32,000 nucleotides of DNA, from contig OU015322.1 of NCBI GenBank assembly GCA_907163225.1, positions 2,754,060 through 2,786,059 on the forward strand, written 5' to 3'. Position 1 is the first letter of the stretch. Each line of letters opens with the position of its first letter. The notes beneath the pieces are model-generated. The model was not told the DNA's origin and did not search any database. It saw nothing but the letters and a program-made list of their open reading frames with translations. The position numbers were made by a program, and so were the translations under genes. Origin of the DNA: an uncultured Rhodocyclaceae bacterium (GTDB taxonomy: Bacteria; Pseudomonadota; Gammaproteobacteria; Burkholderiales; Rhodocyclaceae). Shown here one piece after another: positions 13,654 to 29,187 of this stretch.

Positions 13654-13688
13654 TAGATTCAACGAGTTAGGGCCGGCTTATGTCGGCC

Positions 13689-14702: not shown

Positions 14703-15321
14703 TTTTGTTCGTCAGTTCTCGAAGCAATGCGTTCGCTTTTAGGCGGTTGTTCATCATCCAGTCTTCGGTTTCGTATTGGCTTGATAGATCTGCGTTGTTC
14801 GCCAGAAATTCTTTGTACTTGGCTGTCCATAATGTCGACAGCTGGCTTATTTTGGTCGCAATTTTTCTCTTCTCCTCATCGGTTATTCCCCCTCCTAGTT
14901 TGAGTCTGTTCTTGAACGCTCGTGGTGCTATTGACGCGGCGGTCTGAAAAAACAGCGTTGTGAACTTGTAGTTTTCTGCTTGCTGCGCGATGTCCAGATC
15001 ATCGTCCATCGCCGGATAAGCAAATTCAGGGGTAGGGGCGAAGTGTCCGTGCTTCTCGTCGGATACGCCTGTCGCAATCCACAGTGCAAATTGAGGCCAG
15101 TGCCTTGCCAATGCCTCAAGCATCTCCACCGATGGTTTCGTTGATCCTCGGTTGTACTGACGCCACTTCTCTTTTGATATTCCCGTCGCCTCTTCCAGCG
15201 ATTTCCAGCCGTTTCGTTGATCTCTTGTCAACTCGTTGATCAGTACGCGCATCCGGAAGTCGGCGTCATATTTTTTTTCAATGTCATCGCTAAATTCTGG
15301 TGTTTTGGGCTTGACGTTCAT
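14683..15321 (-). CDS. CI-type HTH prophage repressor candidate
   Basis: I start it at ATG 15321, preceded by GGAGG. WKSLEEATGISKEKWRQYNRGSTKPSVEMLEALARHWPQFALWIATG resembles the phage CI-repressor HTH domain, which ends in W-L/I-x-T-G. It overlaps the int start by 20 nt and is divergent from the xis/rep genes. Confidence 0.55.
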   Translation of the reverse strand: MNVKPKTPEFSDDIEKKYDADFRMRVLINELTRDQRNGWKSLEEATGISKEKWRQYNRGSTKPSVEMLEALARHWPQFALWIATGVSDEKHGHFAPTPEFAYPAMDDDLDIAQQAENYKFTTLFFQTAASIAPRAFKNRLKLGGGITDEEKRKIATKISQLSTLWTAKYKEFLANNADLSSQYETEDWMMNNRLKANALLRELTNKNDDQTG

Positions 15322-15349
15322 TCCTGCCTCCGGTAATCTGCCGCGCATG

Positions 15350-15366
15350 GCGTTAAAAATTAACGC
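15350..15366. promoter_or_regulatory. candidate operator in the divergent repressor/xis control region
   Basis: Inverted repeat GCGTTAA-aaa-TTAACGC, centred between the two divergent start codons (15321 and 15418). Confidence 0.35.
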
Positions 15367-15417
15367 GCAGCGCGGTAAAACAATAACGTCGCTGCGTTTG
15401 TATTCGGAGTGACGATT

Positions 15418-15642
15418 ATGGGCGTTCCAGCGGAAAACTTAAATATGTCGGCGCTTGCATTGCAGCAAGTAACGCTTCCAATTTTGTCGCGCAAGAAATT
15501 CGCGGATCTTATCGGCGTCGACGAAGGTGTAGTCCTCGGTTGGGTCAATAAAGGCTATTTGAGCACTGTTCGTCTGGGTAAGTACTCGCTGATTAATGTC
15601 GAGGCGTTGCGCCAGTCCTGTGCCGAGAAGGTGCTTCGATGA
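15418..15642 (+). CDS. small HTH DNA-binding protein (excisionase/AlpA-like)
   Basis: ATG 15418 lies 8 nt after GGAG. LSRKKFADLIGVDEGVVLGWVNKGYLSTVRLGKYSLINVEAL fits the MerR/excisionase HTH_17 pattern. Confidence 0.5.
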   Translation: MGVPAENLNMSALALQQVTLPILSRKKFADLIGVDEGVVLGWVNKGYLSTVRLGKYSLINVEALRQSCAEKVLR

Positions 15643-15655
15643 CTCAGCCAACAAA

Positions 15656-15673
15656 ACTTTCGCATGCGAAAGT
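15656..15673. repeat. palindrome copy 1: ACTTTCGCATGCGAAAGT
   Basis: Perfect 18-bp palindrome, 14 nt after the xis-like stop. Its central ATG is the ORF-track start of rep. Confidence 0.9.
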
Positions 15674-16962
15674 CGGTTCCTGAAATGCGGATGCGTAAAC
15701 GCAACCATGCAGGCATGCCTCCCTCTACGGTTGAGGCTCTGCACGCTGTTGGTCAGTCTGGCGACATTGCCACGGCTGGCGACGCGCCCGCCCACAGCCC
15801 CCGCGAGGACGGGCGCGGCGCTAGCCGCAATGAAAACCACCTTACTAACAGGTGGGGGGTTAATCCCGAGAAGCCCAGTCTCGTCCTCTCTGATATTGGC
15901 ATGGTTGAACGTCTTTGTTCCTCCAACGTTGCCGGAAATCTCGTCGTGATCGATTGGTGTTCTATCACGTTTGTTCCTCCCGCTGACTGGCAACGGACTT
16001 CGTCCAGGTCGTTCGAAATTGTCGATGGTCCTCATATTGAGGTGCTCCCTTCCGCAACCGATTTGTCTGATCCAGTGCTTTCTGATGCTGATCTATTTGC
16101 GGGGCTTCTTGTCCTTGCTCAAGACTTATGTGGCTGGAAATTTACAGAAACGAAAGAGTTGGCGCCTGCAGGGTTCCGTCTAGGCAAGCAGTATGACAAA
16201 TGTGTTGTTTGTGGTTTTGGAGGCGTTGGCTCCCGTGTCATCTTGACCTTCACTGGGCAAGCTTTTGTTCGGGGGGATTTCATGATGCCGCGTCGAATTT
16301 TTGATTTCGTCGGAAATGAGTCGTCGTCACGAATCACCCGCCTAGATATGGCATTCGATGATTTTGACGGTTCGCATTTTTGCCCCTATCAGGCTTACCA
16401 AGACTGGCAAAGCGGTCAATTTGACTACCGGACTGTCCGTCCAAAGCTGCATACCGATGGTGATTTTCATCGTGCTGATCCGGAAAACAAAGGTGTCACG
16501 GTTTATATCGGCAAGGAAGGCAAGCAGCTTGTTATTTATCAAAAGGGTAAGCAACTGGGAAACTCTGATTCGCCGCACGTTCGCGCGGAAGTTCGTATTT
16601 CCCAAAACGCATACAGCATCACTCGCGATGCGCTTATAAATCCGACTCCTTATTTTTGCGGTGCTTACCCCTATCTAGCATTGCGTGTTGCCAATCTAAC
16701 TGGCGATTTGCTGCTTCGGAAATTTGAAGGTGTCGTTCGCGAAGGTTCCGACTCGATTGATCGGGTTTTGGAAGTTATCAAACACCAGTACGGCAAGCAC
16801 CTTCACTGGCTGCGTGAACACTTTTATGGCTCAGATGTTGAGCTTCTGGATGCAATTGTGCGCAACGACGGAAAGCTTCCTCCGGTTCTACAAAAAGCTC
16901 AAATGTTGTTGGACCGAGGCGAGCGCTTGGCTGCTGCCATCAACGAAAAACCACCTTTTTAA
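15664..16962 (+). CDS. rolling-circle replication initiator (Rep_trans / gpII / RstA-like)
   Basis: VVIDWCSITF, ITRLDMAFDDF and VTVYIGKEGKQLVIYQKGKQLG...VRAEVRI fit Rep_trans family motifs as I recall them. The start is uncertain: the first ~79 aa are low-complexity, and ATG 15901 (MVERL...) is an alternative. Confidence 0.75.
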   Translation: MRKSVPEMRMRKRNHAGMPPSTVEALHAVGQSGDIATAGDAPAHSPREDGRGASRNENHLTNRWGVNPEKPSLVLSDIGMVERLCSSNVAGNLVVIDWCSITFVPPADWQRTSSRSFEIVDGPHIEVLPSATDLSDPVLSDADLFAGLLVLAQDLCGWKFTETKELAPAGFRLGKQYDKCVVCGFGGVGSRVILTFTGQAFVRGDFMMPRRIFDFVGNESSSRITRLDMAFDDFDGSHFCPYQAYQDWQSGQFDYRTVRPKLHTDGDFHRADPENKGVTVYIGKEGKQLVIYQKGKQLGNSDSPHVRAEVRISQNAYSITRDALINPTPYFCGAYPYLALRVANLTGDLLLRKFEGVVREGSDSIDRVLEVIKHQYGKHLHWLREHFYGSDVELLDAIVRNDGKLPPVLQKAQMLLDRGERLAAAINEKPPF

Positions 16963-17024
16963 TTTTTTTGCTGCCCGGTATGAGCGACCGGGGGATCAGC
17001 CTAATCGAGCTCTAGGAGATTCAA

Positions 17025-17333
17025 ATGGCTTACAAGGAAAAGTTTCTGGTCGCTGGCGTAAAGATGTTTAACGACACCGTCGATGGCAAGCGCTACGACA
17101 ACACCAAAGTGTTTGTGACGATGGATCTGGATGACAGCAAGGGCACTGCCTTTGGCTATGCCACCGAAGCACTTGAATTCGGTTCCTCGCAGAACTTCGC
17201 CGCAATTCGCGACATGCTCAAAGCCGCTGGTGGCCCGGTGCTTTGCGAAATCGAGCTCAAGCAAACCACAAACGGCAAAGGCGGCATGAAAACGATTATC
17301 CAGTCCTTGGTGCAGGTCAAGAAAGCCGCCTAA
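17025..17333 (+). CDS. putative ssDNA-binding protein (gV position)
   Basis: 102-aa ORF with the RBS AGGAG 7 nt upstream. The assignment rests on its position after rep and its size. No motif was recognised. Confidence 0.4.
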   Translation: MAYKEKFLVAGVKMFNDTVDGKRYDNTKVFVTMDLDDSKGTAFGYATEALEFGSSQNFAAIRDMLKAAGGPVLCEIELKQTTNGKGGMKTIIQSLVQVKKAA

Positions 17334-17335
17334 TC

Positions 17336-17536
17336 ATGACGCCCTGCTTTCTCGTCCAGGATCGAGACACATATCAATTCATTGCTGTTGATGCCGACGG
17401 TATTTATTGCCTTCAGCCTTCGGTCAGATTTGCGAAACGTTTCAGCGATGGTGAGGAAGCAGGTTTAGCAGGGCTCGAACTGTGTGGCGAAGGTTTTTAT
17501 TTGTTCACCTGTTACCTGGACGATTGCAATGCCTAA
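17336..17536 (+). CDS. hypothetical small phage protein
   Basis: The ATG at 17336 lies 3 nt after the previous stop. It encodes 66 aa. Confidence 0.35.
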   Translation: MTPCFLVQDRDTYQFIAVDADGIYCLQPSVRFAKRFSDGEEAGLAGLELCGEGFYLFTCYLDDCNA

Positions 17537-17675
17537 CGCCGGTCAAATCCTCAATGTGCTTGTTTGTTCCGCCCAGCCCCCGGGTGCAGGTGCAGGACAA
17601 GTTTTTGGACCGGTTGATAGCACGTTGTGCCTTCAAACCCCGATGGAACGCTACAACGCAAGCAAAGGACGGTAG
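17529..17675 (+). CDS. hypothetical small phage protein
   Basis: The ATG overlaps the preceding stop (ATGCCTAA). It encodes 48 aa, and the coding call is weak. Confidence 0.2.
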   Translation: MPNAGQILNVLVCSAQPPGAGAGQVFGPVDSTLCLQTPMERYNASKGR

Positions 17676-17800
17676 AAAAAAGCGCTACGGGGACCAGAGG
17701 GCGGAAGATGAGCACGCCAAACGAGGTGATACGAGAAACGGACGAAGCGAGGAGGCAGCAAACCGGATTTGACCTAAGGTATAGGGGTCCTACGTTACGA

Positions 17801-17823
17801 GGGAGGGATAGGGGGAGGGGGGG
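17801..17823 (+). other. G-quadruplex-forming motif GGGaGGGataGGGGGaGGGGGGG
   Basis: Four G-tracts of at least 3 nt with loops of 1, 3 and 1 nt. It lies on the strand that carries the phage genes, inside a ~380-nt ORF-poor gap. Confidence 0.6.
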
Positions 17824-18059
17824 TACCGGTATAATGCGCACGCAGTAACTAGACTGGGCGGGTCCCGGAGCCTAACGCGAAATAAATAATGGCGCAGCAG
17901 GCGTGACAGCAAGACGACAAAAGTAGGGGGAGGGGAGAGTAGTTGCATGCGCGGAAAGCTCACCGACTCTAATAGTATGGTCAGATGTTACTAGCTTAAT
18001 ATGGCCAGCATAAAAAACAGTATCACCCACAATACCTGAGACCGTCTGTACGACAAGAG

Positions 18060-18293
18060 GTGATGATAAAACCCACAAACAGAGCGATGGAGGTTCTCCG
18101 GTTAACTTCAGTGCAATTTTGCCTACAAGTTGATCCCCGAGCTGATCCGACGACTGCTGTCCAGCTTGCCAAGACAGTCAGTATGGCGGACGCACAGTCT
18201 GCTGGTCTGATCGTTATCGGTCTTCTGGTTGCTGCTGGCGTCGTTCTCTGGGGCGGTCGTTTGGTGTTGTCCAAGTTCCAGCCGAAGCTGTAA
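18060..18293 (+). CDS. major coat protein candidate (gVIII position)
   Basis: The C-terminus GLIVIGLLVAAGVVLWGGRLVLSKFQPKL is a TM helix plus a basic tail, and TAVQ...hydrophobic...basic resembles the leaderless Pf3 coat. A strong terminator follows immediately, as after Ff gene VIII. The start is uncertain (GTG 18060, ATG 18063, 18087 or 18183). Confidence 0.55.
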   Translation: MMIKPTNRAMEVLRLTSVQFCLQVDPRADPTTAVQLAKTVSMADAQSAGLIVIGLLVAAGVVLWGGRLVLSKFQPKL

Positions 18294-18316
18294 GCGACTT
18301 ACTAGCTTACTGAGGG

Positions 18317-18338
18317 GGGGCATTCGTGCCCCTTTTTT
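18317..18338 (+). terminator. rho-independent terminator after the coat gene
   Basis: GGGGCA-ttcg-TGCCCC followed by TTTTTT. Confidence 0.7.
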
Positions 18339-18356
18339 CATTTTTGGAGCGCGATC

Positions 18357-18443
18357 ATGTCTGTCGAATTTTGGTATTTCGCTTTTTTCCTGGCTGGGAT
18401 TTTCTCGGGTATGGCGTTTGTTTCCGGCATCAAGGGGATTTGA
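18357..18443 (+). CDS. 28-aa hydrophobic protein (minor coat gVII/gIX-like?)
   Basis: It reads MSVEFWYFAFFLAGIFSGMAFVSGIKGI. Its stop overlaps the next start region (TGAGATG). It is not in the ORF track because it is too short. Confidence 0.3.
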   Translation: MSVEFWYFAFFLAGIFSGMAFVSGIKGI

Positions 18444-18444
18444 G

Positions 18445-19836
18445 ATGAGCGCCAAATTTATTGCCTCGGTTCTTGGCTTTGCCGTAATTTTCTTTTCTGG
18501 CTTTGCGCATTCAACGACGCTCATTTTCGATGCATCGGGAAATATCGTTGGAAGCGTTGCTGGTACGTGGGGAGGTGCAGGCGTTCAAAACCCCTCTGTT
18601 TCGAAGGTCGGAGCTGCAGTAGGGCAAGGCATAACGCAGACGCTTGTGAATCGGGGTTTTAGTGCATCCGACCCTCGCGTTACTTCCACCGTGAAATCAG
18701 TCGCCACACGAGTTGCTAGCACTGTTGCTGTAGCGGGTGCGGGTTCAAGTTGGCTTACTATTCTTTCACGAGCAAATACAGTCGCCGTAGCTGGTGTCCT
18801 TATTTACCAAGGATTGAGTTGGTATTTCGATGCAAAAACCGGACAGGTTACTACTCAACCTCCAGGCACTCTCGCGACACCTATTTTTTCCAACGGCGTG
18901 CAAACTGGACAAATGGCTTGGACGTTGGGTTCAGCTTGGTTCGGTTCGCCAGAGGAGGCATTTAGCTATTCGGTTGAAGGGCCAACACTTAAAAATTATG
19001 CCGACGCTCAGTTCCTGAATGTTGCCGTTACCAAGAACGCGACGTCGGCAACTATTAGCTACACACTTAAGGTTCCTTCTGCCTCAATCAATACGCCCTA
19101 TACAAAGACCGTAACAGGCCAGATCTGGAGCATCGCATCCGCCTGTTCTCCAGGATTCGGTTATTTGTCGGGAACTGGTTGTGTCTCTGCTGGACTCGAT
19201 AAATCACATTGGGCCAACAGCCCGATTCAAACCTATACACCTCAACAGGCGTATGACCAGCTTTCTCAGGCTGCTAAAGATTCGCAGATATCGAAGGAAC
19301 TCATGACTGAGCTGACAAATCGCGTCTGGAAGGATGCTGCTAGCCAGCCGGATTTTCAAGGTGTGCCGTGGTCGGCAAACAATCCGACAAAGCCTGATAC
19401 GTTCACGCCGTATATCACGCAGGAACCTCAAGCCTGGCCGAACACCAAAGAAATTGCATCGCCGGTTTCCACCGCAACGCCACCAGTGGCGCAACCGTTA
19501 GCCGACAACACTGCGATATCGAACCCTACCTCTTCTACGGCTACGAAAGTTGATCTAGGCCCAGATCCGGGTGTTCCTCCGCCCACGCTAGAAGATCCTC
19601 CGACAGACCTGTTTAAACCTATCAAGGATGTTATGGAGCCTTGGCTTTCTTGGCAGGTTCCTAACCATTCAACGGTTTGTCCGACTTGGCACGCTGCGCC
19701 GAGCGTAGCGGGTCACGTATTCGACCTTGATCTTTCTTTTCACTGCACGTTCATCGAAAAGTATCGCAATGCAATTGCTACGGCTGCCATTGTTTGTTGG
19801 GTGGTTGGTGCGGTGTTTATCGTCCTGTCAGCCTAA
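18445..19836 (+). CDS. gIII-like adsorption / minor coat protein
   Basis: I start it at ATG 18445, which gives a signal peptide (MSAKFIASVLGFAVIFFSGFAHS). It has Gly-rich and Pro/Thr-rich linkers and a C-terminal anchor AAIVCWVVGAVFIVLSA. It occupies the position after the coat gene. Confidence 0.6.
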   Translation: MSAKFIASVLGFAVIFFSGFAHSTTLIFDASGNIVGSVAGTWGGAGVQNPSVSKVGAAVGQGITQTLVNRGFSASDPRVTSTVKSVATRVASTVAVAGAGSSWLTILSRANTVAVAGVLIYQGLSWYFDAKTGQVTTQPPGTLATPIFSNGVQTGQMAWTLGSAWFGSPEEAFSYSVEGPTLKNYADAQFLNVAVTKNATSATISYTLKVPSASINTPYTKTVTGQIWSIASACSPGFGYLSGTGCVSAGLDKSHWANSPIQTYTPQQAYDQLSQAAKDSQISKELMTELTNRVWKDAASQPDFQGVPWSANNPTKPDTFTPYITQEPQAWPNTKEIASPVSTATPPVAQPLADNTAISNPTSSTATKVDLGPDPGVPPPTLEDPPTDLFKPIKDVMEPWLSWQVPNHSTVCPTWHAAPSVAGHVFDLDLSFHCTFIEKYRNAIATAAIVCWVVGAVFIVLSA

Positions 19837-19845
19837 GGGGGGCAT

Positions 19846-20163
19846 ATGTACGGAATTTTTCTTTCGGCGCTTTACACCGTTATATCGTTCATTTTTAGGC
19901 AAGTAATAGTCAAATTCATTGTCCTTTGGGCTGTTTACTTTGTGATTGCAGCGTTTGTGAACGCGCTAGCAGGACTGGTTGGTGGAACCAGTCGTTGTTG
20001 TTCTATTACGTTTGATCCATCGGGCTTATCGACGGCGCTATCTCAATTGCCATCGGAAATCTGGTACTGGCTCGATTTGTTTTCCTTTACGCAAGGAGCC
20101 TGTCTTGTCATGACGGCACTTATTTATCGCTTTCTGATTCGCCGCATTCCATTCATTGGGTGA
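19846..20163 (+). CDS. gVI-like small membrane protein
   Basis: 105 aa with several hydrophobic helices, located between gIII-like and Zot. Confidence 0.45.
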   Translation: MYGIFLSALYTVISFIFRQVIVKFIVLWAVYFVIAAFVNALAGLVGGTSRCCSITFDPSGLSTALSQLPSEIWYWLDLFSFTQGACLVMTALIYRFLIRRIPFIG

Positions 20164-20171
20164 GATAGAAC

Positions 20172-21221
20172 ATGGCCATCATTGCTTATACCGGCGTCAT
20201 GGGCTCCGGTAAAACTTACGAAGCTGTTAGCACTGCAATTCTCAATGCGCTCAAGATGGGACGTCGGGTCGTCACCAACATTTCGGGGATCAACTTTGAG
20301 GCAATTCGCGATCACTTGGGGCCGTTTGAAGATGGCTCCATGCTCACACCAGACAAAATTGTTCTGATCCAGTCGAAGCGCATTTCTGAACCTAATTTCT
20401 TTTTTGATCCGGAAGAGCAATGCGAAAGCGTTGTTGTACCGGGCGATCTGGTTTGCATTGATGAGGTCTGGGCCTTCTGGGGAACGGACTGCAAGCTGCA
20501 ACCGGAACACCAGAAATTTTTCCGGATGCACCGGCATTACACCGAGGTTGGTACAGGGACAAGTTGCGATCTGTGTCTCCAGATCCAGGACTTGATGAGT
20601 CTTCATCGTTCAATCCGTGGGGTGCTCGAAAGCACCTACAAATTCACGAAACTCAAAACAATTGGCTGGAGCAGCCGTTATCGAGTCGAAGTCTACGAAG
20701 GATCGAGACAACGCAAGGCTTCACTTGTTTCTGTCAGCGTCAAGAAATACGACAAACGTTTTTTCCCGCTTTACCAAAGCTATGAAGGCGGCTCAGGTTC
20801 CGAAAAAACGGTTGATGGCCGTCAGAACCTGTTCAAGAACAAATGGTTTTTAGCCTCAATGATCATTGCCGTGGTTGGATTGCTCTGGGGTGGATTTTGG
20901 TTTGCGCGGTGGGTTAGCCACATGCAAAGTGGTGGCAAAGATGGAGCGCCGAAAGTTCAGCAGCAGGCCGCACAGCCACAAGGGCAGACACCGGCTGCAA
21001 CTCAATCTTCATCTTCTCCATCCACGACCGCCGTAGCTGTGGATTTTCGTTTGGTCGCGGTTCTTGAACCCACCGCCGGCGAAACAATCGTGATCTTCCA
21101 GACGCAAGACGGACGCTTTGTCCGACAACGCATGAGCGCTGGAATTGTCGATGGCTGGCAAACAGTCGCTGGCTACCAGGGACGAATGGTTGGCTTCTTT
21201 TTCGGGAGCAAAAGCAAATGA
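20172..21221 (+). CDS. Zot / gI-type phage assembly ATPase
   Basis: N-terminal Walker A GVMGSGKTYEAV, Walker B LVCIDEVW and a central TM segment (WFLASMIIAVVGLLWGGFWFA), which matches Zot-family architecture. Confidence 0.85.
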   Translation: MAIIAYTGVMGSGKTYEAVSTAILNALKMGRRVVTNISGINFEAIRDHLGPFEDGSMLTPDKIVLIQSKRISEPNFFFDPEEQCESVVVPGDLVCIDEVWAFWGTDCKLQPEHQKFFRMHRHYTEVGTGTSCDLCLQIQDLMSLHRSIRGVLESTYKFTKLKTIGWSSRYRVEVYEGSRQRKASLVSVSVKKYDKRFFPLYQSYEGGSGSEKTVDGRQNLFKNKWFLASMIIAVVGLLWGGFWFARWVSHMQSGGKDGAPKVQQQAAQPQGQTPAATQSSSSPSTTAVAVDFRLVAVLEPTAGETIVIFQTQDGRFVRQRMSAGIVDGWQTVAGYQGRMVGFFFGSKSK

Positions 21222-22474
21222 TCAAGCTCTACAAAAAACTGGCCTTGTTGCTCGTGCTGCTGGCATGTAATGCCTATGCAGCCGATGCCTCACGACCAGG
21301 TAAATTTTCGCTTGCACTGGACAAGATTCCGGCGCAACAACTCGTCATGCTTTTTTACGACCAATGTGAAAACAAAGGGCTTGTGTTCGATCCGGCGATC
21401 AACAAACTGGAGGAAACCCTGACCGTCAAAACCTCTTCGTTGTCATGCGCTGAGACAAAGCAGATCCTGGGCGATGCACTCTCACGAGCTGGAGTTGTGA
21501 TCGAGCCCAAGAATGGTTACGACGTAGTTTTACTGGCTCGGCGCCAGGTCGAATATGAAGGGTGGCAACAAATGATCTATCGCCCTAAATACCGCGATCC
21601 GCTTGAGCTGGCCCAGATGACGTCGATCATGATTCACAAAGGAGGTTTTGCCCACCAGCGTAGAGGGGCGCAGGTGCAACAAATGGAGTCCAGCCCGGCA
21701 GACGTACCGGAAACGGGCTCGAACGGCGCTAGCATCGTTGCCAAAGCGATAGATAAGCTTGTTTTCTACGGCCCCCCATCGGAGGCCAAAGCAGTGGAAG
21801 CGCTTTTGAATTTGCTCGATGTCCCTTCGCCCCAGATCGAGATCACGGCAGGCATTTATGAATTTCAGAGCGGTCATGCCGAAGGCAGCGCCGTCAATGC
21901 AGCCCTTCGCCTGTTCGGTTCAAAGCTTGGCCTTACCGTGTCTGGCGGGACAACAACCGGAAGCACATTGAAACTTTCGCTGCCAAACCTCGATGCTGCG
22001 CTTTCGCTGCTGGACAGTGACTCCCGATTCAAATACGTCGCACAACCTAGAGTGATGACCAAAGATGGCCAACAAGTTGTTTTCACGTCCGGCCAAGACG
22101 TTCGGGTAAATGGTGCAGTAACCCTCAACGGCTCAGGTCAATCCGTCCAGTCCAAGACAACACTCACGGCTGGCGTATCCCTCCAGGCAACTCCATACAT
22201 TCGCGGTGAAGTCGTGGATCTGTCAGTGCGCCAACAGGTCAGCGATTTTGTCGCATCACCCAATGACGATCCTTCCGTGATGCGTCGAGAGCTCACAAGT
22301 CGCCTGGTTATGCAGCCAGGCTACGTTTATGTAATCGGTGGCCTCAAGACGAATCGAAGGCTCACCGGAAAACAATCGCTGTTTGGATTGCCAATAGGCA
22401 ACTCGCAGGATTCGTCAGATACCGAAATTCTGCTGCTTCTGACCGTCAAGCAAGACCAGCGAAACGACTCCTGA
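21218..22474 (+). CDS. gIV-type secretin
   Basis: It has a signal peptide and a C-terminal secretin signature (VYVIGGLKTNRRLTGKQSLFGLPIGNS...EILLLLTV). It shows ATGA start/stop coupling with Zot. Confidence 0.85.
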   Translation: MIKLYKKLALLLVLLACNAYAADASRPGKFSLALDKIPAQQLVMLFYDQCENKGLVFDPAINKLEETLTVKTSSLSCAETKQILGDALSRAGVVIEPKNGYDVVLLARRQVEYEGWQQMIYRPKYRDPLELAQMTSIMIHKGGFAHQRRGAQVQQMESSPADVPETGSNGASIVAKAIDKLVFYGPPSEAKAVEALLNLLDVPSPQIEITAGIYEFQSGHAEGSAVNAALRLFGSKLGLTVSGGTTTGSTLKLSLPNLDAALSLLDSDSRFKYVAQPRVMTKDGQQVVFTSGQDVRVNGAVTLNGSGQSVQSKTTLTAGVSLQATPYIRGEVVDLSVRQQVSDFVASPNDDPSVMRRELTSRLVMQPGYVYVIGGLKTNRRLTGKQSLFGLPIGNSQDSSDTEILLLLTVKQDQRNDS

Positions 22475-22475
22475 C

Positions 22476-22495
22476 GACTTTCGCATGCGAAAGTC
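22476..22495. repeat. palindrome copy 2: GACTTTCGCATGCGAAAGTC
   Basis: Perfect 20-bp palindrome that starts 2 nt after the secretin stop. Outer arms CTCCTGAC / CAGGAG extend it imperfectly. Confidence 0.9.
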
Positions 22496-22499
22496 AGGA

Positions 22500-22515
22500 G
22501 TGACAAAAAGGTGGC
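22500..22515 (+). repeat. GTGACAAAAAGGTGGC box, copy 1
   Basis: Recurs at 23828-23843 (exact) and at 23630-23646 (one extra A, GTGGTGC). Confidence 0.8.
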
Positions 22516-22560
22516 TTCCGGTAGCGGGTCAAAAATGACGGCAATCGGATGCTGAATTAA

Positions 22561-22803
22561 CTAAGCAAAAGCCCCTGACTGCATTTTCTTGAGAAGCCCA
22601 GCAACAACGTTTCGGCCTGCTATGGTGCCCATATAGCTATTTGGAGTAGCGTTGTTCAATGCTGGGTTGGGATCAGATAGCCATTGTTTTAACCAGGCGC
22701 TTGCATCAAAACCTTCAGCATTGCCTGATTCTTGAACAATTCCCTCAAGCAATCGCAGAAGGTTTGCCTCGGCTTGGGTGTGATTACGTTGTCTTGTGTT
22801 CAA
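22561..22803 (-). CDS. DUF2384 (MbcA/ParS/Xre antitoxin C-terminal, toxin-binding) domain protein, orphan
   Basis: ASAWLKQWLSDPNPALNNATPNSYMGTIAGRNVVAGLLKKMQSG fits the W-L-x-x-P-N-x-A-L-x-x-x-T-P ... G-x-x-x-V ... L pattern of DUF2384. There is no HTH half, and no RES-type toxin ORF lies downstream. Confidence 0.6.
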   Translation of the reverse strand: MNTRQRNHTQAEANLLRLLEGIVQESGNAEGFDASAWLKQWLSDPNPALNNATPNSYMGTIAGRNVVAGLLKKMQSGAFA

Positions 22804-22848
22804 TTTCCTCTCCTATGCGCATCTCAGTCAGCGAAACGAATCCTGAAA

Positions 22849-22866
22849 ACTTTCGCATGCGAAAGT
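22849..22866. repeat. palindrome copy 3: ACTTTCGCATGCGAAAGT
   Basis: Perfect 18-bp palindrome. It shares the flanks CCTGA..(pal)..CAGG with copy 2. Confidence 0.9.
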
Positions 22867-22898
22867 CAGGGAAGCCAAAAAAACTTTAAAATATTTAA

Positions 22899-22961
22899 GT
22901 TACGGTAACAAAAATCACTTGACACAGGCAAAGCATGATATATAATATCGTTACAGTAACG
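22899..22961 (+). promoter_or_regulatory. near-consensus sigma70 promoter bracketed by two GTTAC-N-GTAAC operator-like palindromes
   Basis: TTGACA (22919-22924), a 16-nt spacer and TATAAT (22941-22946), with an A/T-rich UP-like stretch upstream. The palindromes are GTTACgGTAAC (22899-22909) and cGTTACaGTAACg (22949-22961). The RBS AAGGAG precedes ATG 22981. Confidence 0.55.
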
Positions 22962-22980
22962 TAATTAAAGGAGTTTCAAA

Positions 22981-23358
22981 ATGTCTGAATATCAAGCAAA
23001 AGCTGATCTAATTTCTGGCCAGATCGTTGCAACGGCATCGTTTTACACAGGAAACGAAAATTACCAAATTCCCTCTGAATGGATGGCCAAGATTATCAAT
23101 GAAAGAGGAGTGGCTATCACCGTTGCCGAAAGCCAGCTGAAATCAAGAGCATTTTTGATTAAAACGGGTTATGAATTTGAGAATGGATTTGATGCCATCA
23201 TGTTCGCTATAACATTAGCCCAACTGACTAGCACTAGCGAAGATGAAATAGCGTACGCAAAGGAAACAACTAAAAACTGGATAGAAATTGGCGAAGCGGT
23301 TTTTGATGCGGCTCAGGCAGCGATTGCAGAAGCTAAGAAACAGACTGGCGCGGAGTGA
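22981..23358 (+). CDS. hypothetical protein (125 aa), no family recognised
   Basis: It has a good RBS and promoter, an AT-rich coding region and an acidic, helical C-terminus. Confidence 0.6.
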   Translation: MSEYQAKADLISGQIVATASFYTGNENYQIPSEWMAKIINERGVAITVAESQLKSRAFLIKTGYEFENGFDAIMFAITLAQLTSTSEDEIAYAKETTKNWIEIGEAVFDAAQAAIAEAKKQTGAE

Positions 23359-23401
23359 GTGTGATTGATATATTTCGCCGATGCCGTGGGGAGAGCCAGC
23401 T

Positions 23402-23596
23402 ATGCTTAAAGAATCCAAAGTCGAAGAAAAGCCTACTTCTCCGACAGCTAAAGAAAAGCGCCCTAGGGGTCGCCCTCCTAAGGAAGGAGTGGCTGCAACT
23501 GGTGCCCAGCGCATTGCTAAGCTACGTGCAGAGAGAAAAGCTTCCGGGCTATGTCCCTGCTGCGGTCAAGCACTGCCAAGCTCAAATCCGGATTGA
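23402..23596 (+). CDS. small basic protein with an AT-hook-like motif (KRPRGRPPK)
   Basis: ATG 23402 follows GGGGAGAG. The 64-aa product has an RGRP core followed by a basic helix (AQRIAKLRAERKA) and CPCC. Confidence 0.35.
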   Translation: MLKESKVEEKPTSPTAKEKRPRGRPPKEGVAATGAQRIAKLRAERKASGLCPCCGQALPSSNPD

Positions 23597-23624
23597 AATT
23601 AGCAGCTGCTAGAGTAGCTGCACC

Positions 23625-23647
23625 GAAAAGTGACAAAAAAGTGGTGC
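23625..23647 (+). repeat. GAAAAGTGACAAAAAAGTGGTGC box, copy 2 (degenerate)
   Basis: Compare with 23822-23844, GAAAAGTGACAAAAAGGTGGCGC. Confidence 0.7.
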
Positions 23648-23652
23648 CTCCA

Positions 23653-23775
23653 ATGCCCAACTTGAAATCCATCTGGTTGCCTTTGCTTCTGCTATTTCTT
23701 GCTTGGTTTTTGCCGTATTCAGGCATTTGGGCCATCATCAGGAACGCGATCCTCGCAGGATTCGCGCGTTCCTGA
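23653..23775 (+). CDS. possible 40-aa membrane peptide
   Basis: It reads MPNLKSIWLPLLLLFLAWFLPYSGIWAIIRNAILAGFARS. The RBS is poor, so the coding status is doubtful. Confidence 0.2.
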   Translation: MPNLKSIWLPLLLLFLAWFLPYSGIWAIIRNAILAGFARS

Positions 23776-23812
23776 TTTTAGGTTGCTTGTTTTAACCTTT
23801 CTAAATACTTCG

Positions 23813-23844
23813 CTTTTCGACGAAAAGTGACAAAAAGGTGGCGC
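23813..23844 (+). repeat. degenerate palindrome CTTTTCGaCGAAAAG fused to the GTGACAAAAAGGTGGCGC box (copy 3)
   Basis: It has the same two-part architecture as 22476-22515, a CTTTCG...CGAAAG palindrome followed by the GTGACAAAAAGGTGGC box. Confidence 0.7.
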
Positions 23845-24107
23845 ACTTTATAAGTCGCGCCCTCGTCAGCCCCCCCCTTCCTGCTGACTGCTTTTCAAAC
23901 CGCTAATTCACGCATGATCGTACCGCCTTCCCAGACGATGGCTGGTTGGCCACGGGCTTTTACCCTGTTATTGCACTCTATCGAGACAGAAAAAGTGCCT
24001 CATTCCGGCGACTCGTTGGGGTGTACCGATACGGTACGACCTATTCAGTTTCTAAGCGGCTTGATGGGTACACCGCAGAAAACGGAGAAAATCGTACGCT
24101 AAGAGAT

Positions 24108-24434
24108 TCAATGCGCCGGGCTGTCTTCGGAGTCGTCTTGCAGGATCGTTTCGTAGTCCTGGCCGCCGTAGAAAACGCCAATGATCGATACCTGCTCAGC
24201 GTCCACGTCAAAGGCGATCACGGCGCGTTTCTTGTAGTTGGTGATGCGCAGGCCGGGCCGCACGTCATCGCGCATGGTGCCGCGATGGGGAAAAGTGCTC
24301 AGGCTCTCGCAATAGCTCACGATAGCCTCGGTGTACCGCCCGGCGATGTCCGGAGAGGCCGCAGCGGCGATGTGTCCGTACAGGGCCACAAGCTGTTCCT
24401 CGGCCTCCGGAGAGAAAACGACGCGATAGTTCAT
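24108..24434 (-). CDS. parE: ParE-family type II toxin
   Basis: 108 aa. YRVVFSPEAEEQLVALYGHIA...RAVIAFDVDAEQVSIIGVFYGGQDYE is typical of ParE/RelE. Its start overlaps the antitoxin stop (ATGA). Confidence 0.85.
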   Translation of the reverse strand: MNYRVVFSPEAEEQLVALYGHIAAAASPDIAGRYTEAIVSYCESLSTFPHRGTMRDDVRPGLRITNYKKRAVIAFDVDAEQVSIIGVFYGGQDYETILQDDSEDSPAH

Positions 24435-24700
24435 CGCGCCTTGGCGTGTTCGGCAGCAAGGCGGGCGCGCACCTGGTCAATAGTGACAGCGCGGGACGGG
24501 TCTGCTTTGAGCGCATCGTAGGCCGGGCCTACCTGGTGTTGCAACCAGCTTTCGACGGCGCGATCACGCGCCAGGAGCGCACGTAAGCCGTCACGGATGA
24601 CTTCGCTTTCGGTGGCGTACTCGCCAGTCCGCACCTTGGCTTTTACCACGTCCGCCATGTCGTTAGGCAGGGTGATGCTCAGTTGTTGGGTAGTTCGCAT
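24431..24700 (-). CDS. parD: ParD-family (RHH) antitoxin
   Basis: I start it at ATG 24700, preceded by GGAGG. MRTTQQLSITLPNDMADVVKAKVRTGEYATESEVIRDGLRALLARD is ParD/COG3609-like. The ORF-track extension to 24844 is rejected. Confidence 0.85.
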   Translation of the reverse strand: MRTTQQLSITLPNDMADVVKAKVRTGEYATESEVIRDGLRALLARDRAVESWLQHQVGPAYDALKADPSRAVTIDQVRARLAAEHAKAR

Positions 24701-24715
24701 AGCGACCTCCAAAGC

Positions 24716-24744
24716 ATTTGGATAGGATTTAATCCTATCCAAAT
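24716..24744. promoter_or_regulatory. candidate parDE operator
   Basis: Perfect inverted repeat ATTTGGATAGGATT-t-AATCCTATCCAAAT (14-bp arms), 16 nt upstream of the parD start. Confidence 0.55.
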
Positions 24745-24790
24745 GGATCCCAATAGTCCAGCCCGTATTTCGCGGCCGTGAGTTGCAACT

Positions 24791-24942
24791 AATGTGAGCC
24801 CGCCACCATGGAATGCGAGCCCGGTTCGATAAATGCAAGCTCATTTGCAGTTATTGTGAGCCGGGTCGCGGCTTCACTTTCACTTAATTTGAGCCTGGGG
24901 TCGCGTTGAATGCGAGCCCGGCCAGTTTCAAATGCAAGCCGC
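24791..24942 (+). repeat. iteron-like array: 7 direct copies of AATGYRAGCCSG
   Basis: Copies start at 24791, 24812, 24832, 24853, 24886, 24909 and 24931, giving spacings of 21, 20, 21, 33, 23 and 22 bp. All copies have the same orientation. Confidence 0.65.
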
Positions 24943-25030
24943 TACAATTAGGCGTTACACAGCTCGTATCAAACCCGGTGGGATGATCGTCATTCCTCGG
25001 CCGCTCTTAACCAATCAAGGAATGGTAAAA

Positions 25031-25483
25031 ATGGATCGCTGCCTTATTGTTTTCGATTTGGACACAAAGCTGCTTGAGCAGCATTATCACAATGCCAGTT
25101 GGCGCAATGGTTACGCTGATATTCAGCGCGTCTTGAGCAGAAACAACTTCACGAACATTCAAGGAACGGTGTATTTGAGTGATGGAGGGGTAAGACAGGC
25201 TCATGGCACGCTTGCTTTGCAAGAGGTCGCTATTCGCTTCCCGTGGTTTGAAAAGTGCGTCTCCAACATCCAGTTTTATGACTTGGCGGACGACTTTAAC
25301 GCGCAATTCATTGTTGATGGTGTAGCGCAAGCGCGAGCGGCTTTTGAGCGGCGCTTAGCCGTGTTGCGGCAGCAGTTGCTTGATGCTGGACTGACCGTAG
25401 ATAAGATCGATGAAATCATTGGACAGCAACAGTTCTCACTGGAAAACCTATCGTCGAACGCGTTGCTAAAATCGGCTGAATAG
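25031..25483 (+). CDS. VapD-like (Cas2-fold) protein with a C-terminal helical extension
   Basis: ATG 25031 lies 9 nt after AAGGA. LIVFDLDTKLLEQHYHNASWRNGYADIQRVLSRNNFTNIQGTVYLSD aligns by eye with H. influenzae VapD (AFDL..YH..Y.DI..VL..F...QGS.Y). About 55 extra C-terminal residues follow. Confidence 0.7.
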   Translation: MDRCLIVFDLDTKLLEQHYHNASWRNGYADIQRVLSRNNFTNIQGTVYLSDGGVRQAHGTLALQEVAIRFPWFEKCVSNIQFYDLADDFNAQFIVDGVAQARAAFERRLAVLRQQLLDAGLTVDKIDEIIGQQQFSLENLSSNALLKSAE

Positions 25484-25640
25484 CGAAGCCCGGGCTATCA
25501 GCCTGCTCGATGGCCAATCATGTTGAGAAGTGACGACAAAGAGACAACGGCGTAGTTAGAAGATGGTGGGATGTAGTGCTGATTTCTTGTACAACTTGTT
25601 GTATTGTTGGATGAAGTGTTGCGATGTCGGATGTTTGGAC

Positions 25641-25688
25641 GGATTCATAACCCACAGGTCGGCAGTTCAATTCTGCCCATCACCACCA
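25641..25688 (+). repeat. attR core (copy of the tRNA 3' 48 nt)
   Basis: Identical to 13606-13653. Sequence to the left is island, and sequence to the right is chromosomal. Confidence 0.85.
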
Positions 25689-25701
25689 CCGATGCTAAAG
25701 G

Positions 25702-25725: not shown

Positions 25726-25995
25726 CATTTGGGCGTCCTCCCGTGTCTCCGATTGGGACATTCAACGGGACAAACACGGCACCACGCCCAGACCATCCAG
25801 CCCTCTAACCCCCTACATGCAATTCGGGGTTTCGCTTCTTTTTTCGCTCGGCCCCACCCCTCCGTTATAAGACCGCGCAGGGGGTCTGGTCGTGGTCATT
25901 TCGATCTTCTCAGAGGATAATTGTTTAGTCGAATAACATACTTCAGGGAAAATAGATGAGCTATACCGACTACACCGGTTACTGGACGGGGACGA

Positions 25996-26760
25996 TTGAA
26001 GGCACCAATCAGGGGGGGATTTGCTCTCGATATTCGCCAGATTGATGACCAAATATCAGGTGTTGGGAAGTTCAGCGAACCAAGCCTCGGCCAATATGAA
26101 TATCTTCTGCAGGGTACGGTGTCAGAAGTGCTTTCTATACGAATGGTGCCGGGCCGAAGCTCCGGGATAAATCTGGGGACGGTTCACGTTGTTGGCTCAT
26201 TGGATGCAAATGGAAAGCTAGTTGGGCGCTGGAAATCAGATATTGGAACCGAAGGCACTTTTGCTGCGAAGCGGTTCGAGACAGATACCCTGACGAAGGA
26301 GCTTCCTAAAAGCAATTCAGTATTCTTGGTGCATGGACACGATGATGGCTCTAAACATGCTGTTGCTCGTTTCTTAGAGCAAATTGGGGTAAAGCCCGTA
26401 ATCCTTCAAGAGCAAATCAATCGAGGCATGACCGTAATTGAAAAGTTTGAGGAATTCGCTGATAGGGCTGGTTTTGCAGTAGTTCTAATGACTCCTGATG
26501 ATATTGGATACCCGGTGGGCAAAGAGGAGGAGAAAAAGCACCGCCCGAGGCAGAATGTAGTCTTGGAACTCGGTTACTTCGCCGCACACCTAGGGCGCGA
26601 TAAGACATTGGTTCTGACTAAAGGCGATGTTGAGATGCCTTCTGACGTCTTCGGTTTGGTATATGAAGCAATGGACCGCACCGATGGATGGAAAATGAGG
26701 CTAGCGAAAGAACTGAAGGCTGCGGGTTTCGAAATTGATCTCAATAAGGCCCTTGGCTAA
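25996..26760 (+). CDS. TIR-like nucleotide-binding domain protein (pfam10137 / Cap12-type); the reading frame appears split at a G7 tract, so it may be a pseudogene or phase-variable
   Basis: The C-terminal ~150 aa (VFLVHGHDDGSKHAVARFLEQIGVKPVILQEQ...FAVVLMTPDD...RQNVVLELGYF...PSDVFGLVY) match my recollection of the TIR-like family. An ATG at 25956 opens MSYTDYTGYWTGTIEGTNQGG in another frame. That frame would join this ORF if the G-run at 26012-26018 were one G shorter. Confidence 0.7.
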   Translation: MKAPIRGGFALDIRQIDDQISGVGKFSEPSLGQYEYLLQGTVSEVLSIRMVPGRSSGINLGTVHVVGSLDANGKLVGRWKSDIGTEGTFAAKRFETDTLTKELPKSNSVFLVHGHDDGSKHAVARFLEQIGVKPVILQEQINRGMTVIEKFEEFADRAGFAVVLMTPDDIGYPVGKEEEKKHRPRQNVVLELGYFAAHLGRDKTLVLTKGDVEMPSDVFGLVYEAMDRTDGWKMRLAKELKAAGFEIDLNKALG

Positions 26761-26870
26761 GTAATCCTCGCTAACCTACCTGAATCAGTTGGTTCAATAG
26801 TCTGGGGCTCATGGCTGATCGGCTTGATTTTCTCTTTTGACAATTGGATGTCTCGCCCAAAAATGTCCCG

Positions 26871-27527
26871 ATGCGCCGCATAGTTTTAGTGATACTGATT
26901 GCCCTCTCCAGCCAAAGCCGGGCGGATGAGTGCGAGCAGTTGCCGCCTCCGTCGGTGGTGATCAAGCGCTTTGAAGAGGGCGTGGCCATGAACAAGCAGT
27001 ACGGCTACAAGACGCTGACGAATCTGGGGGCGAAATTGGCGCGGCCCGGGAATCAGGTGCTGGGGCTGACGCGTGGCAATGCGGTTGTCCGGTTTTCAAT
27101 GAGTGCTCAGTCGATCATTGATCGTACAGGGCGCTGGGAGTGTTTTTCGCCGCAACTGACGCTCACTTATGGTTTTTCGCCGATGACCGTTTTTGTCGCC
27201 AGCGAGTTTCCTGAGGGCTCGTGTGCCTACAAGGAAATTTACGAACACGAGCTGCGTCATGTGAAGGCGTATCAGGAGCACATGGTCGGGATTGAAAAGG
27301 CGTTGCAGGAAACGTTGAGTCGGCGTTTTTCGACGAGTGGCCCGTGGCGCGGCCCGGTGGGGCAGAGGCGAGCCCAGTTGCAGCAGGAACTGGATGAGCG
27401 TTGGGCGCGCTATGTCGAGCGGGAAATTGCTCGGGTGGATGTTGCCCAGGCGCTGATCGATACGCCCGAGGAGTACGCGCGGGTGGCGAATTCATGCAAT
27501 GGGGAGATCAAGGCGCGTATTCGTTAG
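26871..27527 (+). CDS. secreted HExxH metalloprotease-like protein (DUF922-like)
   Basis: ATG 26871 gives the signal peptide MRRIVLVILIALSSQSRA. It has the YEHELRHV motif, and conserved Cys residues precede it. The family assignment is from memory only. Confidence 0.5.
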   Translation: MRRIVLVILIALSSQSRADECEQLPPPSVVIKRFEEGVAMNKQYGYKTLTNLGAKLARPGNQVLGLTRGNAVVRFSMSAQSIIDRTGRWECFSPQLTLTYGFSPMTVFVASEFPEGSCAYKEIYEHELRHVKAYQEHMVGIEKALQETLSRRFSTSGPWRGPVGQRRAQLQQELDERWARYVEREIARVDVAQALIDTPEEYARVANSCNGEIKARIR

Positions 27528-27550
27528 CGGGGGGGATTCGCCGCCATCAA

Positions 27551-27589
27551 TGACAAAGGCCCGTCTGAAAATGGCGGGCCTTTGTCATT
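27551..27589. terminator. 14-bp-stem hairpin between convergent genes (no clear U-tract)
   Basis: ATGACAAAGGCCCG-(11-nt loop)-CGGGCCTTTGTCAT, located between the DUF922-like stop and the ahpF stop. Confidence 0.4.
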
Positions 27590-27606
27590 CAATGTCCGGG
27601 CCTGAA

Positions 27607-29187
27607 TCAGGCGGGGGCGGAGGTGCGGATCAGGTGGTCGAAGGCGCTGAGCGAGGCCGTGGCGCCAGCGCCCATGGCGATGACGATTTGTTTGTAGGGC
27701 ACATTCGTACAGTCGCCGGCCGCGAATACGCCCGGCACGTTGGTCTGGCCCTTGGCGTCGATTTCGATTTCACCCCGATTTGTCAGGTTGACCGTGGGGC
27801 TGAGAGTTGCCTCCGTGGTTGTGGATTTCAGCCAGTCCGTGTTCGGCAGCAGGCCGATTTGCACGAAGATGCCTTCGAGGTCGATGCGCTTTGCTTCGTC
27901 GGTGTTGCGATCCTTGTAGACTAGGCCGTTGACCTTCTCGCCATTGCCGGTGACTTCAGTGGATAGCGCTTTGACGATGACCGTGACGTTGGGCAGGCTG
28001 AACAGCTTGCGTTGCAACACTGCATCGGCGCGCAACTGGCCGTCGAACTCGAGCAGTGTGACATGGCCGACGATGCCGGCGAGGTCGATGGCGGCTTCGA
28101 CGCCGGAGTTGCCGCCACCGATCACCGCGACGCGTTTGCCCTTGAACAGCGGGCCGTCGCAGTGCGGGCAGTAGGCGACGCCCTTGCCGCGATATTCCTG
28201 TTCGCCGGGTACGTTCATTTCGCGCCAGCGGGCGCCGGTGGCGAGGATGACGGATTTGCTCTTCACCGAGGCGCCGTTTTCGAGCTTGATCTCGATGAGG
28301 TCGCCGGGGGTCAGTTGCGTGGCGCGCTGCAGGTTCATCACGTCGACGTCGTAGTCCTTGACGTGTTCTTCGAGGCCCATGACTAGCTTGGGGCCGTCGG
28401 TGGCCTTGACCGAGATGAAGTTCTCGATGGCCAGCGTATCCATGACCTGGCCGCCGAAACGCTCGGCCAGCAGGCCGGTGCGGATGCCCTTGCGGGCGGC
28501 GTAGATGGCCGCTGCAGCGCCGGCCGGGCCGCCGCCGACGATGAGGACGTCGTAGGCTTCCTTGGCGTTGATCTTTTCGGCATCGCGGGCGGCGGCGCCG
28601 GTGTCGAGCTTGGCGATGATTTCCTCGATGCTCATCCGGCCTGCGCCGAATTCGGTCTCGCCCTGGAAGACGGTCGGTACTGCCATGATCTTGCGGCGCT
28701 CGACTTCGCCCTGGAACATGCCGCCGTCGATCATCGTGCTGGTAATGCCGGGGTTGAGCACGGCCATCAAGTTGAGCGCCTGCACGACGTCCGGGCAGTT
28801 GTGGCAGGACAACGAGATGTAGGTCTCAAAATTGAATTTGCCGGGCAGGGCCTTGATCGCCTCGATCACCGACGCATCGACCTTGGGCGGATGGCCGCCG
28901 GTCTGCAACAAGGCGAGGACGAGCGAGGTGAATTCGTGGCCCATCGGGATGCCGGCGAAAGTAATGCGCGGCGTCTCGCCGGGCTGGCCGATGGCGAAGG
29001 AGGGGCGTAAGGCGGCGCTGCCGTCTTCGCGCAGGCTGACCTTGGGCGAGAGTTCGGCGATGTCCGTCAGCAGGCCGCGCATTTCCTGGGCCTTGGCGCT
29101 ATCGTCGAGCGAGGCGACGAGTTCGATCGGGCGTTGCAGTTTTTCGAGGTAGGCCTTCAATTGGGCCTTGATGTTGGTATCGAGCAT
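27607..29187 (-). CDS. ahpF: alkyl hydroperoxide reductase subunit F
   Basis: I start it at ATG 29187. [35 protein letters not shown] is nearly identical in pattern to the E. coli AhpF N-terminus. It has CHNCPD and CPHCDG redox motifs and FAD/NAD GxGxxG motifs. Confidence 0.92.

Follow-up and report, generated by a model that had tools for sequence, protein, structure and literature searches.

A frameshifted beta-barrel-TIR gene, a candidate single-gene anti-phage locus, beside a tRNA-Met integration hotspot of a Rhodocyclaceae bacterium

The window analyzed here, a stretch of 32,000 nucleotides from the genome of an uncultured Rhodocyclaceae bacterium (assembly GCA_907163225.1, contig OU015322.1, positions 2,754,060 to 2,786,059 of the forward strand), contains an interrupted gene near a tRNA-Met gene and an integrated filamentous prophage (Table 1). 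A 29-codon reading frame that begins at ATG 25956 (MSYTDYTGYWTGTIEGTNQGG followed by ICSRYSPD) ends at TGA 26043-26045, according to both the sequence and its open reading frames, and a long open reading frame (25996-26760, 254 aa counted from TTG) lies in the +1 frame relative to that ATG. The homopolymer at 26012-26018 consists of exactly seven G residues, and deletion of one of them produces an 804-nt open reading frame of 267 aa that contains ...GTNQGGFALDIRQIDDQ.... The first-pass annotation of this DNA had described the early stop, the G7 tract, the displaced long frame, and the fusion of the two frames into a 267-aa protein by removal of one G, and all of these were reproduced, as was its description of the gene as AT-richer than the backbone (48.7% G+C for the gene, versus 56.2% in the window as a whole and 60-65% in its core flanks and neighbouring core genes). 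The start codon is preceded by a Shine-Dalgarno-like motif and, ~35 nt upstream, by a promoter-like site (TGGTCA-17-GATAAT); the count of such sites is not above shuffle expectation, which leaves this one as a plausible promoter at most. No credible RNA element or riboswitch was found in the leader with Rfam, the sole match being a snoRNA (E 0.2).

Table 1. Features of the interrupted gene and its surroundings (window coordinates).
Feature	Coordinates	Strand	Evidence or remark
tRNA-Met gene	13577-13653		
Integrated filamentous prophage (integrase, Rep_trans, DUF2523, Zot, secretin, ParDE)	13654-25640		
attR, 53-nt direct repeat of the 3' part of tRNA-Met	25641..25693	+	Bounds the 12-kb filamentous prophage on the right
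Promoter-like site	25893..25921	+	Consensus scan
Shine-Dalgarno-like motif AGGGA	~25945-25949	+	Read from sequence
Whole probable pseudogene: beta-barrel-TIR single-gene defence candidate, PDC-S35-like, with +1 G frameshift	25956..26760	+	PF10137, PDC-S35, homologue coverage
5' fragment: 21 genuine N-terminal codons, 8 out-of-frame codons, TGA	25956..26045	+	Residues 1-21 are the invariant N-terminus of the family
G7 frameshift site; in-frame state G6 (CAG GGG GGA = Q19 G20 G21)	26012..26018	+	
Remainder of N-terminal domain, residues 22-112, +1 frame; predicted barrel together with residues 1-21	26020..26292	+	AlphaFold2, Foldseek
CAP12/Pycsar-type TIR domain, residues 122-240, with NVVLELG motif	26320..26676	+	PF10137, profile match, Foldseek
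Glu204 codon of the NVVLELG motif	26566-26568	+	Aligned to solved TIR motifs

With the repaired protein as query, 3,781 homologues were found, the best intact ones being 266-271 aa long, 65-79% identical, and aligned over 100% of the repaired protein from residue 1. The intact family is strongly conserved, at 65-79% identity, among Proteobacteria, Verrucomicrobia, Acidobacteria and Desulfobacterota. Six residues (G8, W10, G12, G16, T17 and G21) do not vary in either of two alignments, of 17 and 106 sequences (105 homologues), and all six are encoded by the short upstream frame of the window. Because these upstream residues are invariant, the 21 codons that precede the tract encode the true N-terminus and the in-frame state of the tract is G6; because full-length homologues align with the whole repaired protein, the first 21 residues included, a real conserved gene has been interrupted. 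The frameshift breaks a genuine conserved gene, beyond chance. All of the diverged homologues are contiguous single open reading frames, and three other members of the family are also broken in species-representative genomes.

The TIR-like (Cap12-type) identity proposed from the sequence was borne out by the PF10137 profile, which matches residues 122-240 of the repaired protein over profile positions 2-118 of 119 (130 bits versus a gathering cut-off of 24.7, E 6e-38). The only solved relatives recovered by the family profile are the Cap12 TIR-STING chains 9lmq and 7un8 and PycTIR (8jsj). E204 of the NVVLELG motif, invariant in 106 sequences, is aligned with the glutamate of NVVFEFG in both Cap12 chains, and we take this glutamate of the NVxxExG motif to be the catalytic residue of TIR NADases. 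In the AlphaFold2 model of the full protein (pLDDT 84.8, with residues 121-255 mostly at pLDDT 80-90), residues 122-240 are predicted to have a TIR (flavodoxin-like) fold; the best Foldseek matches are SfSTING (7un8, E 7.9e-6) and the TIR domains of TIR-STING (9lmq/9lmr), followed by those of SPARTA, MyD88 and SARM1.

Among catalogued defence systems, the closest is PDC-S35 of PADLOC, five profiles of which match the repaired protein (E 4.5e-68 to 1.7e-45), the match being confined to residues 74/108-265 (TIR domain and C-terminal helices) and, for the best profiles, to residues 108-265. The PDC systems are 145 predicted candidates identified through 'guilt by embedding' (Payne et al. 2024, bioRxiv 10.1101/2024.01.29.577857), and no mention of PDC-S35 was found in the literature searched. 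The window's gene resembles PDC-S35 in being a single gene for a protein of ~265 aa that has no conserved partner, but differs from it in that the best profiles leave the N-terminal domain uncovered, its place is taken by a helical N-terminal domain of ~150 aa in the most frequent relatives of the TIR module, and the window's copy is frameshifted. The intact protein is a member of this catalogued candidate family and a single-gene TIR defence candidate.

The repaired protein and Cap12 (TIR-STING) share the TIR subfamily PF10137 and the aligned glutamate of the NVV-E-G motif, and Cap12 is its closest solved structure by sequence profile (E 1.8e-8) as well as by fold (E 7.9e-6). Cap12 hydrolyses NAD+ after ligand-driven filament formation (PMC9402430), and by analogy NAD+ hydrolysis is the chemistry that would be expected of the window's protein. 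Unlike Cap12, however, the repaired protein has no STING domain in either the Pfam scan or the AlphaFold2 model, its sensor-side domain is N-terminal and is predicted to be a beta-barrel, the NCBIfam Cap12 models match its TIR part only (33.8 and 32.1 bits versus a cut-off of 450), and no CD-NTase is found among the scanned open reading frames of the window or beside the homologues. PycTIR of the Pycsar/Pucsar systems (8jsj), which is activated by cyclic pyrimidines, has the same TIR subfamily and a similar two-domain design of ligand sensor plus TIR (PMC11224242), but its match is limited to the TIR part (E 2.2e-10 for the PADLOC PycTIR profile, E 0.002 for the PDB), the window's protein has no cyclic-nucleotide-binding domain, its N-terminal barrel giving no cNMP-binding match, and no pyrimidine or purine cyclase is adjacent. 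The ThsB-type TIR domain of Thoeris (PF08937) has no match in the repaired protein, and no ThsA/SIR2-SLOG gene is present among the scanned open reading frames of the window. Membership in CBASS, Pycsar or Thoeris was rejected because the sensor domains and partner genes of these systems are absent.

The N-terminal domain of ~110 aa, which the first-pass annotation had left unassigned, remains without a Pfam family, no match being obtained for residues 1-110. When this domain is modelled by itself (AlphaFold2, pLDDT 90.7, pTM 0.78), it is predicted to form an up-and-down beta-barrel of eight antiparallel strands, the first of which comprises residues 8-16, and the structures ranked first by Foldseek are designed ligand-binding minimal up-and-down barrels (TM 0.73-0.78), then avidin, nitrobindin, lipocalin and FABP-like proteins. 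A specific structural homologue, such as a cyclic-nucleotide-binding barrel, was sought and rejected, since only generic calycin, avidin and designed barrels were matched, with weak E-values. A profile of the barrel gave 372 matches among 1.8 billion representative proteins, nearly always at the extreme N-terminus, where its partners include KAP-family P-loop NTPases (weakly similar to QatA, PifA and PDC-S20), a Ser/Thr kinase that matches PD-T4-6 (E 1e-50), DUF4062-TPR proteins that match PDC-S60, other TIR domains, a nucleoside deoxyribosyltransferase-like domain, and unassigned C-terminal halves of ~230 aa in proteins of ~345 aa. The TIR module of the window's protein is likewise joined to at least five other N-terminal domains. 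Module shuffling of this kind, around both the barrel and the TIR domain, is typical of immune sensor-effector proteins; nothing usable on effector-associated domains with this barrel was found in the literature searched.

The gene stands alone, as had been described. No cyclase, CD-NTase/nucleotidyltransferase or ThsA-like domain was detected among the open reading frames of the window scanned with Pfam (most, not all, of those of at least 90 aa, the segment at ~29.9-32 kb being partly scanned), in agreement with the earlier statement that a CD-NTase, pyrimidine cyclase or ThsA-like partner is missing. No conserved neighbour was found at 26 loci with full-length relatives, the sole protein cluster common to more than five of them being the gene itself or its antisense shadow, and no second open reading frame with the barrel domain occurs in the window or within +/-10 kb of any homologue. 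The neighbours of the homologues are variable and often mobile or defence-like, such as DarT-NADAR (locus L001), a resolvase (locus L003), BrnT/BrnA and a DNA methyltransferase in Zoogloea, and DUF4917 and Bro-N in an Oxalobacter MAG; the Opitutus terrae homologue, 400 nt downstream of a tRNA-Phe gene, stands by itself amid metabolic genes. These loci also bear on the possibility that the protein is a non-autonomous effector, its barrel pairing, in the manner of effector-associated domains, with the barrel of a KAP NTPase or kinase sensor encoded elsewhere or binding the nucleotide signal of an unlinked cyclase. The characterized PF10137 TIR proteins, Cap12 and PycTIR, all respond to a second messenger (PMC9402430, PMC11224242), barrels of this fold typically bind small ligands, and the same barrel forms the N-terminus of KAP NTPases, of a PD-T4-6-like kinase and of DUF4062-TPR proteins, all of which would suit such an effector; with no conserved neighbour at the 26 loci, no second barrel nearby, and a solitary gene in O. 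terrae, we nevertheless regard dependence on a partner as unlikely.

The position of the gene just outside attR at a tRNA integration hotspot, as first described, was upheld by the repeat itself: attR is 96% identical to the 3' end of tRNA-Met (repeat D1), has an exact 32-nt core for which 0 chance matches are expected, and lies 263 nt upstream of ATG 25956. The Zoogloea homologue is located in the same lnt-corC-ybeY-phoH-miaB-tRNA-Met hotspot as the window's gene, and this shared site and the gene order suggest a betaproteobacterium as the source of the window. One contig (L016) represents the empty site, its intact tRNA-Met gene being joined directly to the spacer and G7 gene found in the window. 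Thus, the TIR gene is not cargo of the prophage, and the frameshift either predates or is independent of prophage integration. An older islet with a third att copy 3' of the gene was also considered and rejected, no further repeat of the tRNA end being found with up to 3 mismatches, and no plasmid relatives of the locus were found by blastn.

The tract reads G7 in all 22 other contigs of this lineage, which come from ~20 metagenome samples, at least seven accession series and several assemblers; these counts are taken from assembly consensus, in which a minority G6 subpopulation would be invisible. Contigs L098 and L099, which also have G7, match the window with 100% identity over 2 kb. The frameshift is confined to this one lineage, at least 99.7% identical. 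No in-frame allele of the lineage is present in the 90% cluster of a collection of 15 billion proteins, which also lacks exact matches to the G6 and G9 products. At the same codons, 17 of 19 intact homologues have a run of 2-3 G and the other two have runs of 4 and 6, and the nearest intact relatives (~86% nucleotide identity) read CAG GGT GGA. Another tract, at 27529-27535, is G7 in the window and G6 in sister strains, and so tract length is resolved by these assemblies and is variable elsewhere. These data all but dispose of the suggestion that the organism has an intact gene and that the extra G is a sequencing or assembly error: some platforms are prone to homopolymer errors and the lesion is a single base, but the same G7 was assembled independently in all 22 contigs, by assemblies that distinguish G6 from G7 at 27529-27535, and with 22 concordant contigs the error was rejected.

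A second lesion affects most of the sister strains. In 19 of the 22 contigs, an IS4-family element (encoding a 441-aa transposase with Nterm_IS4 and DDE_Tnp_1 domains, and bounded by 17-bp perfect terminal repeats) replaces everything upstream of 26004, removing the start codon and the promoter and leaving the G7 tract in place; one of the IS-truncated contigs also has a G144E substitution at a near-invariant glycine. The remainder of the gene is well preserved, with an omega of 0.06 between the repaired gene and its nearest intact relatives, the same as between intact relatives, and deviation of the window's protein at only 1 of 120 columns that are at least 90% conserved. Since omega is low and only one conserved column deviates, the lesion is recent.

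Continued expression of the G7 allele, through +1 frameshifting, transcriptional slippage, or internal initiation at TTG 25996 or a downstream GTG with a shortened N-terminus, was weighed and appears very unlikely. The +1 frame is open from 25996, and tRNA-Gly can re-pair in the +1 direction within GGG GGG A and so give exactly the conserved NQGGF. However, no known stimulator (an A-site stop or rare codon, or a properly spaced upstream Shine-Dalgarno sequence) accompanies the tract, an internally initiated product would, on the predicted structure, miss barrel strand 1, and the IS-truncated majority allele shows that the 5' end is dispensable. Because the frameshift occurs in a single lineage at least 99.7% identical and the diverged homologues are contiguous open reading frames without the tract, it is not a conserved programmed event, and programmed frameshifting of that kind was rejected.

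A contingency locus, in which slippage would switch a costly abortive-infection effector between OFF (G7) and ON (G6) so that only a subpopulation expresses it, was the favoured reading of the first-pass annotation and is here considered distinctly improbable. The tracts of translational phase variation usually sit near the 5' end of the gene, as does this G7, 56 nt into the open reading frame, and a G7 tract can slip; the downstream open reading frame is undamaged, with a low omega, and the tract at 27529-27535 shows that G-tract length is polymorphic in the same strains. Like the poly-G phase-variable genes of Campylobacter and Neisseria, the window's gene has a G tract within its first 60 nt, the length of which sets the frame. 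Unlike those contingency genes, its tract shows no length polymorphism across the 22 contigs, is absent from orthologues, is only 7 nt long, and lies in a gene that sister strains are losing to an IS element. A tract of seven G residues is at the short end of those known to switch at useful rates. Toggling is further opposed by the uniform G7 consensus, the lack of an ON allele in the protein collection, the failure of homologues to keep a G run at the site, and the irreversible loss of start codon and promoter in 19 of 22 contigs that retain G7. Five G/C runs of at least seven were observed in the window versus ~6 expected (calculated) from base composition, and so long G/C tracts are not enriched. 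The undamaged remainder of the open reading frame was also counted against a pseudogene, since a gene still in occasional use would look the same, as was the change of G-tract length in the lineage at 27529-27535.

The locus is probably a copy of a single-gene anti-phage candidate of a horizontally mobile kind that was inactivated recently, and a fixed pseudogene rather than a switch; the fresh pseudogene that the first-pass annotation had listed second is favoured by the fixed G7, the second lesion and the otherwise pristine open reading frame. The intact 267-aa protein would consist of the ~110-aa eight-stranded barrel, a short linker and the Cap12/Pycsar-type TIR domain. If the protein works like TIR-STING, with its filaments (PMC9402430), and PycTIR (PMC11224242), the barrel may be a regulatory or sensing module that binds a small ligand or a phage-derived cue, and its occupancy would cause the TIR domains to oligomerize and hydrolyse NAD+, aborting the infection. 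One G was apparently added to an ancestral G6 (CAG GGG GGA) at codons 19-21, so that translation from the native ATG would now end after 29 codons and the remaining 254-codon frame would have neither a ribosome-binding context nor the first barrel strand, and function has presumably been lost. The frameshift, which is fixed in the sampled strains, probably arose in their common ancestor before the lineage split; in one branch, the IS4-family element would then have replaced all sequence upstream of 26004, and in the window's branch, the filamentous prophage would have integrated into the adjacent tRNA-Met gene.

Highly improbable, by comparison, is the combination of a reversibly OFF G7 allele, a self-sufficient barrel-TIR abortive-infection protein, and a barrel that is a novel sensing or adaptor module shared by many proteins. 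If it were true, rare G6 revertants would be selected under phage attack, and the barrel module would also serve KAP NTPases, PD-T4-6-type kinases and DUF4062-TPR proteins in immunity. As a probable pseudogene, the window's copy provides a clean example of the rapid turnover of defence genes at a tRNA hotspot, with a frameshift first, truncation by an IS element in sister strains, and a prophage arriving next door, and has little significance beyond that. Of broader interest is the intact family, whose compact single-gene TIR protein has a barrel that belongs to no Pfam family and recurs on defence-type scaffolds; the ligand of this barrel, once identified, would give TIR-based immunity a further known sensor module.

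Directly 3' of the TIR gene, the beta-barrel-TIR defence candidate interrupted by a +1 G frameshift, is a conserved ORF of 218-227 aa with a signal-peptide-like N-terminus and a HELRH motif, which had no Pfam match and is kept in all contigs of the near-identical sister strains. Over positions 26761-27700 the window differs from these strains at 23-24 positions, about 20 of them clustered within approximately 200 nt (27494-27700) at the convergent 3' ends of this ORF and ahpF; the cluster looks like a recombination patch. The TIR gene itself has only one differing base, which is synonymous (26304). An intergenic tract just past the conserved ORF is G7 in the window versus G6 in sister contigs L005, L007-L012 and L016, and is therefore a genuine G-tract length polymorphism within the lineage.

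In most sister strains an IS4-family element of approximately 1.4 kb (present in contig L017 and also in L005, L007-L015 and L100-L107) has taken the place of the TIR gene's 5' end. The element encodes a 441-aa transposase and possesses 17-bp perfect terminal inverted repeats, plus a 12-bp perfect subterminal hairpin. On the far side of the element in L017 is not the tRNA but the 3' end of an ORF (presumably methyltransferase-like, by the look of its translation); this arrangement points to a deletion or rearrangement associated with the IS.

The window also includes a 12-kb filamentous (inovirus-like) prophage integrated at tRNA-Met, a site that is unoccupied in contig L016. Within the prophage a 22-nt palindromic motif (AAAACTTTCGCATGCGAAAGTC) occurs three times, twice inside 53-nt repeats spaced 372 nt apart, and these palindromes may be operator or terminator elements.

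Features of the prophage and of the TIR gene flanks (window positions unless a contig is named)
Feature	Position	Strand	Remark
Prophage	13654-25640		
Integrase	13689-14702	-	prophage
22-nt palindromes	15653-15674, 22474-22495, 22846-22867		prophage
Rep_trans	15664-16962		prophage
Major-coat-like ORF	18060-18293		prophage; 77 aa
pIII-like ORF	end at 19836		prophage
DUF2523	19846-20163		prophage
Zot	20172-21221		prophage
Secretin	21218-22474		prophage
ParE toxin/ParD (RHH) antitoxin pair	24108-24844	-	prophage end nearest attR (right-boundary tRNA-Met repeat)
Conserved ORF	26844-27527	+	directly 3' of TIR gene
Intergenic G7 tract	27529-27535		just past conserved ORF
IS4-family element	L017 902-2326		joined to the window sequence at 26004

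Further members of the barrel-TIR family, the homologues of the repaired product, are broken in representative genomes (L039 4704-5500, L040 4630-5401 and L041 10001-10788). The member in a Moraxellaceae MAG has an in-frame stop and a frameshift, and those of an Acidobacteriota MAG and a Methylotenera MAG have a single frameshift each.

Barrel-TIR homologues are located just 3' of tRNA genes in other phyla (L111 5410-8807; L108 7528-8807), in Zoogloea at the same miaB-tRNA-Met hotspot as in the window, and in Opitutus terrae downstream of tRNA-Phe. These locations suggest that barrel-TIR genes are delivered by small tRNA-targeting elements.
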